Origin: Rickettsia endosymbiont of Pseudomimeciton antennatum
GTDB taxonomy: Bacteria; Pseudomonadota; Alphaproteobacteria; Rickettsiales; Rickettsiaceae
Assembly (NCBI GenBank): GCA_020881195.1
Contig: JAJIYL010000008.1
Coordinates: 4,053 to 68,052, forward strand
Direction of reading: 5' to 3'
Length of the DNA stretch: 64,000 bases
The notes beneath the pieces were generated by a model. That model saw only the letters and a list, made by a program, of their open reading frames with translations. It was not told the origin of the DNA and did no database searches. The translations under genes were made by a program, and so were the position numbers. Within the stretch, counting starts at the first letter, position 1. Each line of letters starts with the position of its first letter. Shown piece by piece: positions 9,439 through 14,183 of this stretch.

Positions 9439-9699
9439 TAAACCTCAGTTTTGGATTAGAATTTAAAAATTCTAATCCAAAAACTGGTAAAGCAATAAGG
9501 AAAAATGCATTCTTGAAGCGGTTCTACGAATGCATTTTAACCTAATTTTTAGCTAATAATCTTATTTTTAGTCTGAAAAATAAGATTATTAGCCATTTTT
9601 ATTATTTTAACAATCAGGCGACGAACCGCTTCTAACCTAATTGTTTACATTATTATTCCAATTTTGGATTAACTAAGTTAATCCGAAATTGGGGTTTTA
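9439..9699 (+). repeat. 261-bp symmetric five-hairpin element, copy 1
   Basis: Inverted copy at 12475-12735 with 5 differences by manual alignment; five internal stems; imperfect terminal inverted repeats. Confidence 0.92.
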
Positions 9700-9747
9700 C
9701 AGGAGCCACTGCTTAAATAAATCATTATTAAGTATAATCAAAAATAA

Positions 9748-9875
9748 GCTAGTAGGCTGCCTGCGATAACTAATTATATTTTCTGGCGAGAATAAATATG
9801 ATTTTTGAAGGAATATTCGCAGCTAAAAAGAGCCAAATATAGAATTACTTTAGTTATTGCAGGCAGCCTACTAGC
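9748..9875. mobile_element. 128-bp MITE-like element with 26-bp terminal inverted repeats
   Basis: GCTAGTAGGCTGCCTGCGATAACTAA (9748-9773) / TTAGTTATTGCAGGCAGCCTACTAGC (9850-9875); relative at 57926-57984. Confidence 0.7.
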
Positions 9876-10003
9876 ACTAGGTATTTATTATAGATTATTT
9901 ACAAAAAGATAAATATTTTTGATAATAATCTAATAAAATAGTGGAAGTATTGTAATTCTTAATTTACACTAATTTATGATATAACTAATATTATAGGATA
10001 AAA

Positions 10004-10729
10004 GTGCTTGATAATCGGAAGTATAATTGGCAAACAAAATATCCAAACTGTAAATATGCCGAGAAGTTACTGAGCAAGCTATCTGAGTTGAATCATCAAG
10101 TAACTAGACCGGTAGATATTGATGCGGTTAAAAAAGGTATCTATTATGCTAAAAAATATCATGGTAGCCAAATGCGACAATCTGGTGACCCTTATTATTC
10201 TCACCCGATAGAGGTGGCGTACATGGTTGCCGAATACACCGCATTAGAATTGCCCCAATATTTTAGGACTGATATGATTATTACCAGTTTACTGCATGAT
10301 ACTCTTGAAGATACGGATTTGAGTGAAAAGCTGATTTCTATGGTCTTTGGTAAGCAAATTGCTAGCCAAGTAGAAGATTTAACCAGGATCAAATCATATG
10401 GGAAGATCAGTTCCAAGGAGATGTTAGATTTATTATTTCAACAGAAAAAATTTGATGTGGCATTTATTAAAGTCTTCGATCGAATTCACAACTTACAAAC
10501 TATAAGTGCTAAATCACCAGAAAAAGCTAAGAAAATCGTTAAGGAGACAATAGAATATTTTATAATTCTTTGCACATACTTGGAGATACCGGCAGCAGAG
10601 CAAAAATTAATAAAGCTATGTTACCAAAATTTTCCGACTAACCAACCAATCTACTATGATTCTGAGGGTAATGTCCAGAATCTTTTGCCAACTTCTCAAA
10701 ATGAAAGAACCCGTATGCGAAAAATATAA
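10004..10729 (+). CDS. Stand-alone HD-domain (p)ppGpp hydrolase-like protein (SpoT HD/SAH)
   Basis: QMRQSGDPYYSHPIEV, LLHDTLEDT and DRIHNL motifs; no synthetase domain. Confidence 0.9.
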   Translation: MLDNRKYNWQTKYPNCKYAEKLLSKLSELNHQVTRPVDIDAVKKGIYYAKKYHGSQMRQSGDPYYSHPIEVAYMVAEYTALELPQYFRTDMIITSLLHDTLEDTDLSEKLISMVFGKQIASQVEDLTRIKSYGKISSKEMLDLLFQQKKFDVAFIKVFDRIHNLQTISAKSPEKAKKIVKETIEYFIILCTYLEIPAAEQKLIKLCYQNFPTNQPIYYDSEGNVQNLLPTSQNERTRMRKI

Positions 10730-11973
10730 TTGCAGGAAGCATAATAACCAATAATCCCCAATTGCCAAAATGGTTAGTAAGATAGACAAAACCAAAAGAG
10801 GCAATGACAAACATTAAGGTCCTAGATGCAGCAAATGTAATACTAGCACAGGTAAAACGTTTAAATACCGGAAAGCTTTTATAACAAATGGGAAGAATAG
10901 GAGGTAAGCATTCAAGTAAAAGTATAACGAATTGAATCAAAAATAACTGATAAGGAGAATTAATATTATTCAATAAATACGGACAAAATATGATAAAAAT
11001 AGAACATATGAATAGTATAATTTTCATTGTTAATAATGGATTCACTTTTAAACTTAAATAACATAACGTTAATGTGGTTACAAACTCCATTATACAGACA
11101 ATGAAATTATGATGAATAACCTCGGAAGTTGTATAACCAAAGCTGGTTTTTAAAATATTACCACAATATATATAAAGAAAATAAAAGCTTATCGGTCCAA
11201 CACAATGTAATAAAAACAAAGATATTACTGTTTTTTTATTAACTTTTTCTTGCCAAATAGGATGGTTTGTTAAGCTAGCTGTATCGGTATTAATTTCCTC
11301 AAAAACTTTTTTTATTCGATGTTTGGCATCAGCAAATTCTGGTGTTTCTCGCAAGGTTGTTCTAGCAACAGAACCAATTAATGATATTACTGCACCAAGC
11401 CAAAATGCTAGACGCCAGTTAAAACCATGTGAAGTAACAAGTGAGGCAATGCCTAAAGCAGCTATACCCCCTAAGGCAGCAAAAGCTGATAATGATCCCA
11501 CACTTGCATATTGTATTGGGGGCTTAAGCGTTTCCGTTAAATACAGTTCTGCACCTATTATTTCACTCATAGAAGATATGCCTTGCACAATACGACATAT
11601 TGTAAGTACCCAAGCCGCTGTAACTCCTATCTGGGCATAAGTAGGCAGATTAGCCATCACCAGACATGATGCCGCCGTCATAAAGGTTGTGATGATCACT
11701 GTTGATTTACGCCCTATATTATCACCTAACCAACCAAATATTACTGTTCCAACAAGTCGGAAAACATAAGTGGAACAAAAAGCAAAAGACATCATTAAAG
11801 AAGTTGTCTGAGGATCAGATGGTTCAAAAAATAACTCATTAAGAATCCCTACCATATGCACATAAAGCAACAGATCAAAATACTCCAGAAATGTTCCTAT
11901 GGAAAGCAACCCTATAGCTTCTTTCTGTTCTCTTGTAAGGCTAGTCTGCTGATTAGGGATAATATCCTGACAT
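10638..11973 (-). CDS. ProP-like MFS transporter; the natural 5' end (ATG 11973) is out of frame
   Basis: TREQKEAIGLLSIGTFLEYFD, GWLGDNIGRK and ETPEF motifs; ATG 11973 reads MSGYYP* because of one extra C at 11956-11958. Confidence 0.85.
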
Positions 11974-12184: not shown

Positions 12185-12474
12185 CTTTTTTTAGATACCT
12201 ATTTCGCAGGAATGACATAAAGATAGCAGGGGTGACATTAGTAGCTAAGAGCACATAACACAACATCCTCTTTGCTGACTAGTGTCGTTTCTGCTTCAAG
12301 TGGAGAACAATCAATTGTTAAGTTTTGGTCACAGTAGTATAATTTTTAATTAAATATAACCTACATTAATATAGTCAAATAATTTTCATATTAAAAGATA
12401 TTTATTTTTTATCAACAGAAAATATTTAATAATTTACTAATTAATTGTCTGTTATGGTTAAAAAATTTGCTATT

Positions 12475-12735
12475 TAAAACCCCAATTTCGGATTAACTTC
12501 GTTAATCCAAAATTGGAATAATAATGTAAACAATCAGGCTAGAAGCGGTTCGTCGCCTGATTGTTAAAATAATAAAAATGGCTAATAATCTTATTCTTCA
12601 GATTAAAAATAAGATTATTAGCTAAAAATTAGGTTAAAATGCATTCGTAGAACCGCTTCAAGAATGCATTTTTCCTTATTGCTTTACCAGTTTTTGGATT
12701 AGAATTTTTAAATTCTAATCCAAAACTGAGGTTTA
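12475..12735 (-). repeat. 261-bp symmetric five-hairpin element, copy 2 (inverted)
   Basis: Reverse complement matches 9439-9699 except at 5 positions. Confidence 0.92.
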
Positions 12736-12875
12736 GAGCATTTAGATTTACTTTGCACTAGTGATATTGTTACAATCAAAAATTTATTATTTCACTTCTC
12801 TATATTATTTCTTCTTGCTATCACTGACCAAATAGTCAAATGTATTAATATTAAATATTAACTAATGGTAAAGAA

Positions 12876-14183
12876 ATGATAACATATCAAGACCATAAAA
12901 TTCTAACAAGAGAACAAAAAGAAGCGGTTGGGTTGCTGTCAATCGGGACATTTTTAGAGTATTTTGATTTGATGCTCTATGTTCATATGGCAGTATTGTT
13001 GAATGAGTTATTTTTTCCAAAAACTGACCCGCACACTGCTACTCTGCTGTCAGCTTTTGCCTTCTGTGCTACTTTTGTTTTTCGACCAATTGGTGCTGTG
13101 CTATTTGGTTGGATAGGTGATAAAGTAGGTCGCAAAGCTACGCTAGTTGTTACAACTTTTATGATGGCGTGTTCTTGTTTGGTGATGTTTAGTTTGCCGA
13201 CTTATGCACAAATTGGTATTACTGCTTCGGTATTAATCACCATTTGTCGGATAATGCAAGGTATGTCATCCTTAGGAGAAGCAATAGGGGCAGAATTATA
13301 TTTAATGGAAATGACTAAGCCACCACTACAATATCCTGTTGTTGGTGCCATTTCAATATTTGCTGATTTAGGTGGAGTATGTGCTTTAGGTATCGTGACG
13401 TTGGTTACTTCATATGGTTTTAATTGGCGATATGCTTTTTTATTTGGTACAGTGATTGCCCTAGTGGGGGCTATGGCAAGAACGCGATTGAGAGAAGCAC
13501 CAGAATTTGCTGATGCAACTAGAAGGCTGCTAAATAAACTTAAAACTTTCGGTTTAGAGAAAAAGGATATTACTAATCAAGAAATGCTAAATGAAAAAGT
13601 TAATATAAAAACTATATTAGCTTATTTATCAATTGAATCGACTAGACCAATTATTTTTTATCTTGTATATATGCATTGTGCTACTATACTGAAAAGCACC
13701 TTCAATTATAGTGTTGAACAAATTATTAGTCATAACTTGCTTGTTAGTATAGCAGAGCTACTTATCAGTATTCTATATACTTATTTGAGTTATAAAATAT
13801 ATCCACTAAAAATTTTAAAAACAAAATTAGTAATTTTTGCTATTATTATTATATTTTTGCCATATTTATTAACTAATCAGTCTCCTTTCTATTTATTATT
13901 ATTGCAGTTTTTTATATTGCTATTTCAGACAGGGTCATTTCCAGCTGCTCCAATATTTTATAAGCAGTTTCCTGTGTTTAAACGTTTTAGATGTGTCAGT
14001 ATCTCATTTGCTGTGATGAAGGCAATAATGTATGTTGTTGTCTCTTTTGGATTAGTTTGTTTAATAGAGTATTTTGGTAATTGGGGCATAGTAATATTAT
14101 TTGTACCCTTCCTTGTGGCATATGGATTTGCCTTGCGTCATTTTGAGATATTAGAGAAGTTACGACGTGCGAGTGGTTTTTAA
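12876..14183 (+). CDS. ProP-like MFS transporter
   Basis: LTREQKEAVGLLSIGTFLEYFDLMLYVHM and GWIGDKVGRK; paralog of 10638..11973. Confidence 0.9.
   Translation: MITYQDHKILTREQKEAVGLLSIGTFLEYFDLMLYVHMAVLLNELFFPKTDPHTATLLSAFAFCATFVFRPIGAVLFGWIGDKVGRKATLVVTTFMMACSCLVMFSLPTYAQIGITASVLITICRIMQGMSSLGEAIGAELYLMEMTKPPLQYPVVGAISIFADLGGVCALGIVTLVTSYGFNWRYAFLFGTVIALVGAMARTRLREAPEFADATRRLLNKLKTFGLEKKDITNQEMLNEKVNIKTILAYLSIESTRPIIFYLVYMHCATILKSTFNYSVEQIISHNLLVSIAELLISILYTYLSYKIYPLKILKTKLVIFAIIIIFLPYLLTNQSPFYLLLLQFFILLFQTGSFPAAPIFYKQFPVFKRFRCVSISFAVMKAIMYVVVSFGLVCLIEYFGNWGIVILFVPFLVAYGFALRHFEILEKLRRASGF

Follow-up and report, generated by a model that had tools for sequence, protein, structure and literature searches.

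A five-hairpin repeat in a Candidatus Tisiphia genome is probably a 254-bp IS982-type MITE

Results

A gene-less repeat is present twice at the locus

The DNA analyzed here is one stretch of 64,000 nucleotides (the window) from the draft assembly of a Candidatus Tisiphia, or Torix-group Rickettsia, genome (G000). Two 98%-identical copies of a five-hairpin repeat face each other in it across 2.8 kb of DNA containing two genes, which encode a SpoT-like hydrolase and a ProP-like transporter. Copy A, a member of subfamily A, occupies 9442..9695 on the plus strand. Copy B occupies 12479..12732 on the minus strand and is the reverse complement of copy A, so that the two form an inverted pair. In the initial annotation of this locus, the unit had been given as 261 bp, with a second copy at 12475-12735. 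The 5 differences between the copies and the perfect fourth hairpin of the second copy were found again, but the unit is 254 bp (9442-9695), the second copy is inverted, and the family to which both belong has about 60 ends genome-wide. The boundaries, ACCTCAG...AATTGGGGT, are common to 8 intact copies; the TAA and TTTA bases outside 9442-9695, formerly counted as repeat ends, are flank.

At these common boundaries, all intact copies carry terminal inverted repeats (ACCTCAGTTTTGGATTA and ACCCCAATTTCGGATTA), as expected of a MITE. In copy A, the left repeat, ACCTCAGTTTTGGATTAGAATTT (9442..9464, plus strand), doubles as the 5′ arm of the first hairpin, fits the inverted-repeat motif of the IS982 family and is similar to IS982 termini from the genus. 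The right repeat (9673..9695) reads ACCCCAATTTCGGATTAACTTAG on the minus strand and fits AC(N)6T(N)5TT. MITEs are under about 300 bp and lack a transposase gene, and this element of 254 bp agrees with both. Stops are present in all six of its frames (2-11 per frame), and no long reading frame crosses any of the 13 copies checked, 13/13 of which are intergenic.

Five hairpins are arranged with fold-back symmetry

All five hairpins previously described (H1 to H5) were recovered and are strong. Predicted folding energies, -89.7 kcal/mol (z = -10.9) and -93.3 kcal/mol (z = -11.9), were far beyond chance, and 0 of 200 shuffled sequences folded as well. In copy A, on the plus strand, H1 (9449-9464/9467-9482) is a perfect 16-bp stem formed by the terminal repeat and its own internal inverted copy. 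H2 (9502-9512/9528-9538) has a perfect 11-bp stem and a 15-nt loop containing GAAGCGGTTC. H3 (9552-9569/9576-9593), a perfect 18-bp stem, lies on the dyad axis and is followed by a terminator-like CATTTTTATT. H4 (9609-9619/9635-9645), the loop of which contains GAACCGCTTC, is an inverted, diverged copy of H2, and H5 (9658-9674/9676-9692) is formed by the right terminal repeat and its internal inverted copy. The earlier stem lengths stood for H1, H2 and H3; H5 was found to have 17-nt arms at 94%, and the 11-bp stem ascribed to H4 is complete in copy B (11/11) but not in copy A (9/11). A role of H3 as a terminator was considered and rejected: it is terminator-like on one strand, such sites were not above shuffles, and the orientation of copy B is unsuited.

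Pairing was then scored across 37 copies of the family. In H1, 98% of cells were paired, and 8 of the 16 pairs had changes on both sides between subfamilies. In H2, the value was again 98%, with a stem whose consensus sequence does not differ among subfamilies A, A2 and B; in H4, it was 98.3%, with a C-G to U-A exchange in 14 copies. The H3 position holds a wholly different sequence in other subfamilies, where a hairpin is still formed, and H5 of subfamilies B and C has the same geometry with a different sequence. The initial suggestion that the stems are maintained beyond chance was borne out, with pairing kept across the 37 copies and stems more conserved than spacers.

When the left half of the element was aligned with the reverse-complemented right half, 91-92 identities were found in 140 columns (65% identical), at a score of 108 compared with 48.6 +/- 7.9 for shuffles. 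In this alignment, H4 is the inverted, diverged H2. The element is a diverged fold-back of a half of ~127 bp, in which H1 and H5 each pair a terminal repeat with its own internal inverted copy, and H2 and H4 represent a single hairpin in opposite orientations, their stems having drifted apart with compensation. This fold-back of the whole element accounts for both its mirror symmetry and the complementary loops of H2 and H4.

The loop sequences GAAGCGGTTC (9515-9524) and GAACCGCTTC (9623-9632) had been reported as exact 10-nt complements, and recomputation confirmed this. Across the 37 copies, the central pair of the loop-loop helix was broken in 16/37 and an end pair in 17/37; double, compensated changes occurred in 1-2 sequences only, and no convincing covariation was seen. 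Moreover, the H2 loop was the most variable module within subfamilies (0.08-0.12 changes per site). We conclude that the complementary loops reflect the two-fold symmetry of the DNA and not RNA kissing.

The element is multicopy and dispersed

BLAST searches with the element yielded 112 matches in its own genome, with 8 intact copies (pairwise identity, 95.7-98.8%), about 30 left ends and 32 right ends (~60 ends in all), the multiple dispersed copies expected of a MITE. Copies are scattered over unrelated intergenic places in either orientation, and several sit at contig ends. Sibling subfamilies were found in six or more further genomes of the genus (G001, G002, G004, G006, G010 and G011); a BLAST search of a plasmid collection with the element gave no match. 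The TA dinucleotide at element position 50-51 (9491..9492), intact in copy A, is a hot spot for nested insertions in other copies. In at least 9 copies of this genome, a different palindromic element of ~124 bp is nested exactly at this TA and is flanked by TA; these inserts are present in both orientations and fall into two subfamilies.

Some apparent partial copies were also evaluated. BLAST matches to the core only, which had raised the possibility that a 150-bp core had entered a smaller element, proved to be complete five-hairpin elements of sibling subfamilies with ends too diverged to align. Matches to H2 only were diverged or deleted members, and those in other genera were spurious. 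Solo hairpin copies of 48 bp and 41 bp, considered as possible independently transposed units, had no clear duplications, and no clear target motif was found at these mini-copies. A scan of genome contigs with a gapped H2 hairpin pattern returned chance hairpins in unrelated bacteria, the pattern being too generic.

Insertions are bounded by target duplications and matched by empty sites

Although no target duplication had been noted at first, copy A is flanked by TTTAA on the left (9437..9441) and TTTAC on the right (9696..9700), and copy B by TTAAA on its inner side (12474..12478) and TTAGA on its outer side (12733..12737). Each of these pairs matches at 4/5 positions, and the 5-bp rule rests on other copies and on empty sites. 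Perfect 5-bp duplications were present at 5/8 intact-or-nested subfamily A copies in this genome and at most copies in G010, G001 and G004; they include TAATA, TATTA, TTTTA, TTATA, TAGCA, TATAA and TTAAA. Duplications measured 5 bp in subfamilies A and C and 6-8 bp in subfamily B.

Filled sites were compared with empty ones in relatives. For four insertions of this genome (C53:851, C45:14183, C53:18237 and C6:19269), the joined flanks were uninterrupted in 1-6 relatives each, at 91-95% identity, and these clean empty sites held a single 5-bp target copy. At a fifth (C27:6086), the uninterrupted match was more diverged (81%) and the junction alignment less clean. At least four insertions, and probably five, therefore have precise empty sites in relatives. 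Copy B, in addition, has a paralogous empty site with one TTAGA at C62:58500-58886 of its own genome. Filled and empty sites and target duplications, which are expected of a MITE, indicate that the copies spread as DNA. Multicopy dispersal, sharp common ends, terminal inverted repeats, target duplications, empty sites and fold-back homology were all observed in this family.

The termini resemble those of IS982 elements

In IS982-family elements, the termini begin with 5′-AC, the inverted-repeat motif is 5′-AC(N)6T(N)5TT-3′ and the length of the direct repeats varies (PMC7335449). The window termini, ACCTCAGTTTTGGATT and ACCCCAATTTCGGATT, fit this motif at every specified position. It had been proposed at the outset that a match to a known IS end or MITE would refute the reading as a functional structure, and the motif provides such a match. 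In subfamilies B and C, the termini agree with the motif at AC and T9 but, like the resident IS982s, have TA at positions 15-16. Transposases matching NF033520 (cut-off, 130 bits) were detected at 211-245 bits in 8/17 genomes of the genus. The corresponding IS982 ends were ACCCCAGTTGCCAATTAA, ACGTCARTTCGGGATAAG, ACGTTAATTCTGGATAAG and ACCCCGATTATGGATAAG, and the direct repeats were of variable length in both groups, 5-8 bp for the resident IS982s and, depending on the subfamily, 5 or 6-8 bp for the element. The sequence AATTCGGGATAAG was found exactly in the G004 IS982 end, which nearly equals the subfamily C terminus, and in both ends of subfamily C; the G009 IS982 shares it as well.

The exact subfamily A terminus (..TTTTGGATTAG; ACCTCAGTTTTGGATTAG) was present on no IS982 in the sampled genomes, the best matches covering 13-15 of 18-22 terminal bases. 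No homology to IS982 was found beyond the terminal repeat, which lends no support to descent by internal deletion. No IS982 transposase was detected in the window's own assembly, though its MITE copies look young. Across genomes, the presence of the element and that of IS982 correlate imperfectly: G010 has the most element matches with IS982 fragments only, and G012 has over 40 IS982 copies with almost no element.

These data suggest, with a probability of about 80%, that the five-hairpin stretch is a gene-less, non-autonomous MITE of 254 bp and of IS982 type, the copies of which in this genome are orphaned. The family is new, and its kind is already known. The earlier reading as a mobile element was right in that the repeat is a transposed multicopy element, but with IS982-like termini and variable duplications, it is not of an unknown kind. 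Judged from its ends, an IS982 transposase is the likely mover: the ~20-bp terminal inverted repeats (5′-ACCYCARTTTYGGATTA) would be putative binding sites of an IS982-type DDE transposase supplied in trans, and a staggered cut in A+T-rich DNA at insertion would duplicate 5 bp of target. The copies now in this genome appear to be stranded, because its assembly is without an IS982 transposase.

Discussion

Alternative explanations

The initial annotation had offered, as one possibility, a structured ncRNA or leader with H2-H4 kissing loops forming a pseudoknot, the DNA copies being copies of its gene. Predicted folds are indeed very stable on both strands, the minimum-energy fold of the plus strand pairs the exactly complementary loops, consensus loops are complementary over 8-12 nt in most subfamilies, and a matched GGCT/AGCC change is seen in one copy (G010 L050). 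However, no Rfam family matched at the gathering score, and the best permissive matches (25 bits against thresholds of 60-210) were generic hairpin matches. The copies lie in both orientations at unrelated intergenic sites and, from their duplications and empty sites, spread as DNA. With a loop helix so often broken, an H2 loop so variable, and inverted homology of the halves that already predicts loop complementarity, we regard an RNA function of this kind as very improbable. The other suggestion of the initial annotation, a single-stranded DNA or cruciform site, is not obviously correct either. The hairpins would in that case be recognized by an HUH (Y1) transposase, as in an IS200/IS605-derived palindrome or a REP/RAYT unit. 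Consistent with this, all five modules are hairpins, both ends included, and the genome encodes a Y1 transposase at C7:15211-15576 (124.6 bits), as well as a second, degraded one at C26:4534-4791, both within 0.5-1.6 kb of a piece of the element. Yet the Y1 gene, which encodes the genome's only HUH/Y1 transposase, forms part of a standard IS605-type tnpA/tnpB unit; the end hairpin of that unit (CCCATATG...CATATGGG), present at both loci, is unrelated to those of the element. IS200/IS605 elements and REPs are not known to make target duplications or to have terminal inverted repeats, and this element has both; the lack of a clear target motif at the solo mini-copies points the same way. The 5-bp duplications largely refute a Y1 origin, which we find scarcely credible.

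Mobilization of a MITE of the same build by a transposase outside IS982, either from another family with ~5-bp duplications or from one lost from the genus, would explain why no autonomous element was found with the exact subfamily A terminus, why subfamily A has strictly 5-bp duplications when the IS982 nearest by terminus (G001) has 6-7 bp, and why element and IS982 abundance correlate imperfectly. A second, IS5-like DDE element type is present in G006, G008 and G016, and two copies in G010 are without clear termini. This other abundant DDE element (IS5-type, about 257 aa) has unrelated termini, GGTTCTGTG, and a CTAG-type target, however, and the window termini agree with all conserved positions of the IS982 motif, the termini of subfamily C are nearly the same as a resident IS982 terminus, and the 6-8-bp duplications of subfamily B parallel those of the ISs. 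Another source of mobility is therefore unlikely. It is highly unlikely that copies A and B form a composite transposon or invertible cassette together with the SpoT-like and ProP-like genes, an arrangement that could coexist with the MITE explanation. The two copies do face each other around these genes, facing repeats can mediate inversion, and synteny with G002 and G006 stops within about 65 bp of copy A. But the two copies have separate 4/5 duplications, whereas the pair's outer flanks agree at only 3/5 positions; a paralogous empty site with one TTAGA exists for copy B by itself; and all relatives carry highly multicopy SpoT/ProP cassettes that are not bracketed by the element. As a separate observation, a swap of flanks by inversion between copies A and B gives 8/10 matching bases either way.

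Persistence of the hairpins

Hairpin stems, including the hairpin-shaped termini, are kept or compensated across subfamilies more strongly than spacers. The H2, H3 and H4 stems are identical between subfamily consensus sequences, and the spacers are only 40-55% identical; these stems, like the consensus H2/H4 loop motif, are conserved between subfamilies better than spacers or even termini. Moreover, every subfamily pairs each of its termini with an internal inverted copy, and the inner arms of H1 and H5 co-changed with the termini as these diverged toward different IS982 variants. A plain MITE model does not alone account for the stem conservation and the inner-arm co-change. It is conceivable, but rather unlikely, that the hairpin architecture is itself required for the element to spread. 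If it were, an IS982-type transposase or a host factor might recognize extruded or single-stranded hairpins, or alternatively palindromic double binding sites plus the loop motif, one per half, and the family would be a natural dissection of the requirements for IS982 transposition. A neutral process, with hairpin-templated correction of quasi-palindromes and recombination between subfamilies, would give the same pattern.

Significance of the family

Under the MITE reading, a striking structure is accounted for without a new RNA, and Candidatus Tisiphia gains its first characterized MITE family, with ends, a target rule and a likely transposase family. The MITE multiplied recently in this Torix-group genome. 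Its copies break the assembly at contig ends, attract nested insertions and mark synteny breakpoints and recent insertions, which makes them usable as strain markers. The family also shows that "palindromic repeats" of Rickettsiaceae can be ordinary transposons with terminal inverted repeats and target duplications, and the compensated changes in its hairpin termini give access to the mechanism of IS982 transposition.

Comparison with known elements

With IS982 elements, the window MITE has in common 5′-AC termini, the inverted-repeat motif and variable direct repeats, and the IS982 termini of Tisiphia are near matches. An IS982 is about 1 kb long and carries a transposase gene, whereas the MITE is 254 bp long and has no gene; in the ISs examined, the terminus is not repeated internally in inverted orientation, and hairpins of the H1/H5 type are thus absent. 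Correia elements of Neisseria (CREE/NEMIS) are bacterial MITEs that measure about 100-155 bp, duplicate TA and have a single long hairpin; once transcribed, their inverted repeats adopt hairpin folds, and they can carry a promoter, a terminator and RNase III sites. By analogy, they are a model for secondary effects that the window MITE might have on its host, which here are hypothetical.

Like the window MITE, Rickettsia palindromic elements (RPEs) are described as short palindromic dispersed repeats of Rickettsiaceae that are abundant in larger genomes; they measure about 100-150 bp and insert in frame into genes, with an ORF running through the element (Ogata et al. 2000, 2002, as summarized in PMC10969869 and PMC1166351). 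Unlike RPEs, the MITE is 254 bp long, has stops in all frames, was intergenic at every copy checked, and has terminal inverted repeats and 5-bp duplications. It differs from RPEs in both length and open frame, as judged from descriptions of RPEs rather than from their consensus sequences.

The closest parallel is found in the endosymbiont Cardinium of Oedothorax gibbosus, where MITECca01 is an IS982-derived MITE of about 240 bp (PMC9769881). MITECca01 and MITECca02 are, like the window MITE, ~240-250 bp long, gene-less, mostly intergenic and highly multiplied (PMC9769881). Their inverted repeats are like those of a resident IS982-family element, the likeness to the window MITE being drawn from their description. 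Next to its repeat, on the inner side, the Cardinium MITE retains a few parental bases, and intact parents are present alongside it (PMC9769881), whereas in the window MITE, the IS982 match stops at the terminal repeat and the host assembly is without IS982. A five-hairpin fold-back with hairpin-shaped termini is absent from the description of MITECca01 (PMC9769881). Cardinium belongs to the Bacteroidota and the host of the window MITE to the Alphaproteobacteria, and in both cases, the MITEs reside in maternally inherited endosymbionts of arthropods.

Structure and boundaries of the element

The stems proposed in the initial annotation for the stretch 9439-9699 were found to be present. H1 (9449-9482) is a perfect 16-bp stem, H2 (9502-9538) a perfect 11-bp stem with a 15-nt loop, and H3 (9552-9593) a perfect 18-bp stem; H5 (9658-9692) has 17-nt arms with a 94% match, and H4 (9609-9645) is paired at 11 of 11 positions in the second copy but at only 9 of 11 in the first. 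The H2 loop GAAGCGGTTC and the H4 loop GAACCGCTTC are exactly complementary. Predicted folding energies for the two strands were -89.7 and -93.3 kcal/mol, compared with about -40 +/- 4.5 for dinucleotide shuffles (z-score about -11 to -12 on either strand). The second copy, placed at 12475-12735, does differ from the first at 5 positions, and it is oriented as the reverse complement. When intact copies were aligned with their flanks, they shared the edges ACCTCAG...AATTGGGGT, which gives a unit of 254 bp, at 9442-9695 (copy A, plus strand) and 12479-12732 (copy B, minus strand). Each reading frame of the element contains 2-11 stops, and no long reading frame crossed it in any of the 13 copies examined.

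Transposition of the element

In the window's own genome assembly (G000; 1.47 Mb, 70 contigs), BLAST yielded 112 matches to the element, and the count came to 8 intact copies (pairwise identity 95.7-98.8%), with left and right ends numbering about 30 and about 32. Contigs end at several of the copies, indicating that the repeat breaks this assembly. Perfect 5-bp direct repeats (AATTA, TTAGT, TAATA, TTATA, TTCAA or AACTA on both sides) were found at copies of the element; at some others, including copy A (TTTAA/TTTAC) and copy B (TTAAA/TTAGA), the flanks matched at 4 of 5 positions. Among copies of the window's type (subfamily A) from relatives, the duplication was perfect in 14 of 19.

To look for empty sites, the two flanks were joined for 11 of the 13 examined G000 copies, and the joined sequences were searched against the genus, Candidatus Tisiphia (Torix-group Rickettsia). 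Four of these queries gave a single uninterrupted match in relatives, at 91-95% identity; a fifth, from contig C27, matched at 81% with a less clean alignment at the junction. In the alignments of the four clean cases, what is missing from the empty sites is precisely the element and one 5-bp target copy; for example, caac-TAATA-[element]-TAATA-tact in G000 corresponds to caac-TAATA-tgct in the relatives G016, G008 and G002. For copy B, a paralogous empty site with a single TTAGA was present within G000 (contig C62); no empty site was found for copy A. The five-hairpin element has transposed. The initial statement that there is no target duplication was incorrect, because direct repeats flank the copies and the empty sites hold a single target. 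Synteny with both G002 and G006 extends across the gene at 7752-9158 and ends just before copy A (~65 bp; window ~9378-9442), so that the element marks a rearrangement breakpoint; the synteny with G002 also takes in the small ORF at 9155-9394, which is located ~3.1 kb further on in that genome.

Range and subfamilies

The element was present in 12 of the 17 genus genomes searched, and strongly so in seven (G000, G001, G002, G004, G006, G010 and G011). No convincing match was obtained in other genera, where two weak ones were A+T-rich chance matches, and a BLAST check of a plasmid collection gave none. Matches limited to positions 57-208 had raised the possibility of a free core; this was rejected, as these are complete five-hairpin elements with different H1 and H5 sequences. 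Subfamily B has ACCTCAATTCGATATAAGAATT...AATTCTTATATCGAATTGG on the left and CCTGAATTCGATGTAAC...GTTACATCGAATTCAGGT on the right, with duplications of 6-8 bp (TAGCTA, TAATAAA, TACTAA, TAAATTA and TAAGATTA). Subfamily C has the termini ACCCCAATTCGGGATAAGAATT and ACGCGAATTCGGGATAAGAATT and a different, fully compensated H3, and a further group carries yet another H3, unlike those of the other subfamilies.

Probable relationship to IS982

Termini starting with AC and duplications of variable length suggested IS982 as the family, and this was then tested. By using the NCBIfam model NF033520 (cut-off 130 bits) on the 17 genus genomes, transposases above the cut-off (211-245 bits) were detected in 8, with up to about 40 copies each. 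In G000, neither this model nor tblastn with five of the genus IS982 proteins revealed an IS982 transposase. IS982 ends, set from several copies per genome type, were ACCCCAGTTGCCAATTAA in G001, ACGTCAGTTCGGGATAAG / ACGTCAATTCGGGATAAG in G004, ACGTTAATTCTGGATAAG in G012, ACCCCGATTATGGATAAG in G007 and G011 (GACT replacing GATT in G011), and ACGCGAGTTGCCAATTAAT in G002; the duplications of these elements measured 5-8 bp. These ends are similar to the termini of the five-hairpin element, and AATTCGGGATAAG is exactly common to the G004-type IS982 and both subfamily C ends. Published work on the IS982 family describes conserved 5'-AC ends, 5'-AC(N)6T(N)5TT-3' as the best-conserved pattern, and direct repeats that vary in length (PMC7335449). 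The window termini ACCTCAGTTTTGGATT and ACCCCAATTTCGGATT fit AC(N)6T(N)5TT at all specified positions. Several points weaken this link. The exact subfamily A terminus was not found on any IS in the genus genomes searched, and the element and IS982 had nothing in common beyond the terminal repeat. G010 contains many copies of the element and only fragments of IS982, and G012 many IS982 copies and almost no element.

Across the genus (G012, G004, G001 and G007 set against G000, G010 and G006), the IS982 load ranged from >40 intact copies (G012) to none (G000) and did not track the element load. A second DDE type, common in G006, G008 and G016, resembles IS5; it has the termini GGTTCTGTG and a target of CTAG type and is not related to the element. 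The two G010 copies of this type had no clear termini.

Fold-back origin and loop-loop pairing

When the left half was aligned with the reverse complement of the right half, 91-92 identities were obtained over 140 columns, with a score of 108 compared with 48.6 +/- 7.9 for shuffles. This inverted homology shows the element to be a diverged fold-back in which H5 is the counterpart of H1 and H4 that of H2, with H3 on the axis. In inverted orientation, H2 and H4 are identical at 12 of 15 loop and 6 of 11 stem positions. A motif kept in one half of a fold-back must recur as its complement in the other, and the loop motif is itself nearly self-complementary (8/10).

Thirty-seven copies from six genomes were then aligned, and pairing was scored in the five stems and the proposed loop-loop helix. 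Paired cells amounted to 98.0% in H1, 98.0% in H2, 92.6% in H3, 98.3% in H4 and 70.5% in H5, where the low value is due solely to misregistered alignment of subfamily B; changes on both sides occurred in 8/16, 2/11, 7/18, 2/11 and 6/17 pairs, respectively, one H4 exchange (C-G to U-A) being found in 14 copies. For the loop-loop helix, 85.7% of cells were paired and both-side changes occurred in 3/10 pairs, in only 1-2 sequences each; of the 37 copies, 16 had a broken central pair and 17 a broken end pair. Moreover, the H2 loop was the most variable module within subfamilies (0.08-0.12 changes per site and copy, compared with 0-0.03 in stems), and Rfam contained no family near threshold for the element. 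The proposal of a kissing-loop RNA is thus not supported, and judging from the alignment, the loop-loop pairing is a product of conserved letters.

Alternative explanations

Single-strand hairpins could instead be the substrate of an HUH (Y1) transposase, and such an enzyme is encoded in G000 near an element copy. Its gene, however, lies within a normal IS605-type tnpA/tnpB unit that has its own unrelated hairpin, and IS605-type elements make no duplications, so this explanation is not supported. Nor is a composite transposon or invertible cassette bounded by copies A and B: the two copies are flanked by separate duplications, an empty site exists for copy B on its own, and the sequences outside the pair agree at only 3 of 5 positions. 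On the plus strand of the element, H3 with its T-run is terminator-like by score, but sites of this kind were not enriched and the orientation of copy B is unsuited to termination; a terminator role is likewise not supported.

In the IS605-type unit (C7:15205-16791), a Y1 tnpA (open frame of ~133 aa) is accompanied by a divergent tnpB of 411 aa, and the end hairpin is CCCATATG...CATATGGG. The same hairpin occurs with a degraded tnpA, the second found, at C26:4534-4812. Each tnpA locus is 0.5-1.6 kb from pieces of the five-hairpin element, which probably reflects clustering of repeats.

Conserved hairpins and solo palindromes

The H2, H3 and H4 stems are identical between subfamily consensus sequences, compared with identities of 40-55% for spacers and 50-90% for termini. 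In every subfamily, each terminus is paired with a co-changed internal inverted copy that lacks two bases at its tip; genus IS982 elements have no such copy. The hairpin structure may, as a possible and unproven role, favor the element in competition for transposase, either by extruding hairpins or by offering binding sites that are doubled or palindromic; if true, the hairpins would report on the mechanism of IS982 transposition. Alternatively, hairpin-templated correction and recombination between subfamilies might maintain the structure. Perfect palindromes consisting only of two left termini (48 bp; C28:13151-13198 and C31:4766-4813) or of two right termini (41 bp; C14:27004-27044, C32:31109-31149, C53:23513-23553 and C59:30089-30129) also stand alone in G000. 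Both outer tips are complete, and no clear target duplication was seen at these palindromes. They could be minimal mobile units, or could have arisen by collapse or by template switching.

Nested inserts and neighboring features

In other copies, a different palindromic element of ~124 bp (termini TACTC...GAGTA, TA duplication) was nested at the TA dinucleotide that occupies element position 50-51 and lies at the 3' foot of H1; the equivalent site in copy A, window 9491-9492, is intact. Such inserts occur in G000 at C32:68815-68940, C53:18284-18409, C53:50119-50243, C48:14621-14746, C27:6133-6258, C55:47-172 and C64:47-172, and at contig ends of C14 and C25. Because the inserts represent two subfamilies and are found in either orientation, this one TA was hit independently at least three times, and it has the appearance of a hot spot directed by structure or sequence. 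We take the TA duplication to suggest an IS630/Tc1-type MITE, that is, a gene-less miniature inverted-repeat transposable element. Another small repeat, starting GGAGGCTGCCTGCGATAACTAATTA... (C53:18556-18714 and C48:9124-9282), was nested in two element copies at position 196, with positions 191-196 duplicated, and the same repeat family directly adjoins copy A (window ~9741-9880). A third insert lies at positions 165-168 in a copy on C55.

Between copies A and B, a SpoT-like HD-domain ORF (10004-10729, plus strand) and a ProP-like MFS transporter ORF (10638-11909, minus strand) are convergent, with a 92-bp overlap. The latter has a TTG start and ~20 fewer N-terminal residues than its paralog at 12876-14183 (plus strand). 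Dozens of paralogous SpoT/ProP cassettes were found in every relative searched, with tandem arrays in G002 at 635-643 kb.

Comparison with known systems

No published description of the five-hairpin family was found, Rickettsia palindromic elements, the classic repeats of this bacterial family, having been compared through their published descriptions. Those elements are ~150 bp long, form ten families and often lie in-frame within genes (PMC10969869; PMC1166351), whereas the five-hairpin element exceeds that length, has every frame closed and lies between genes. The closest described system is MITECca01, an IS982-derived MITE of ~240 bp that has come to outnumber every other mobile element in a Cardinium endosymbiont (PMC9769881).
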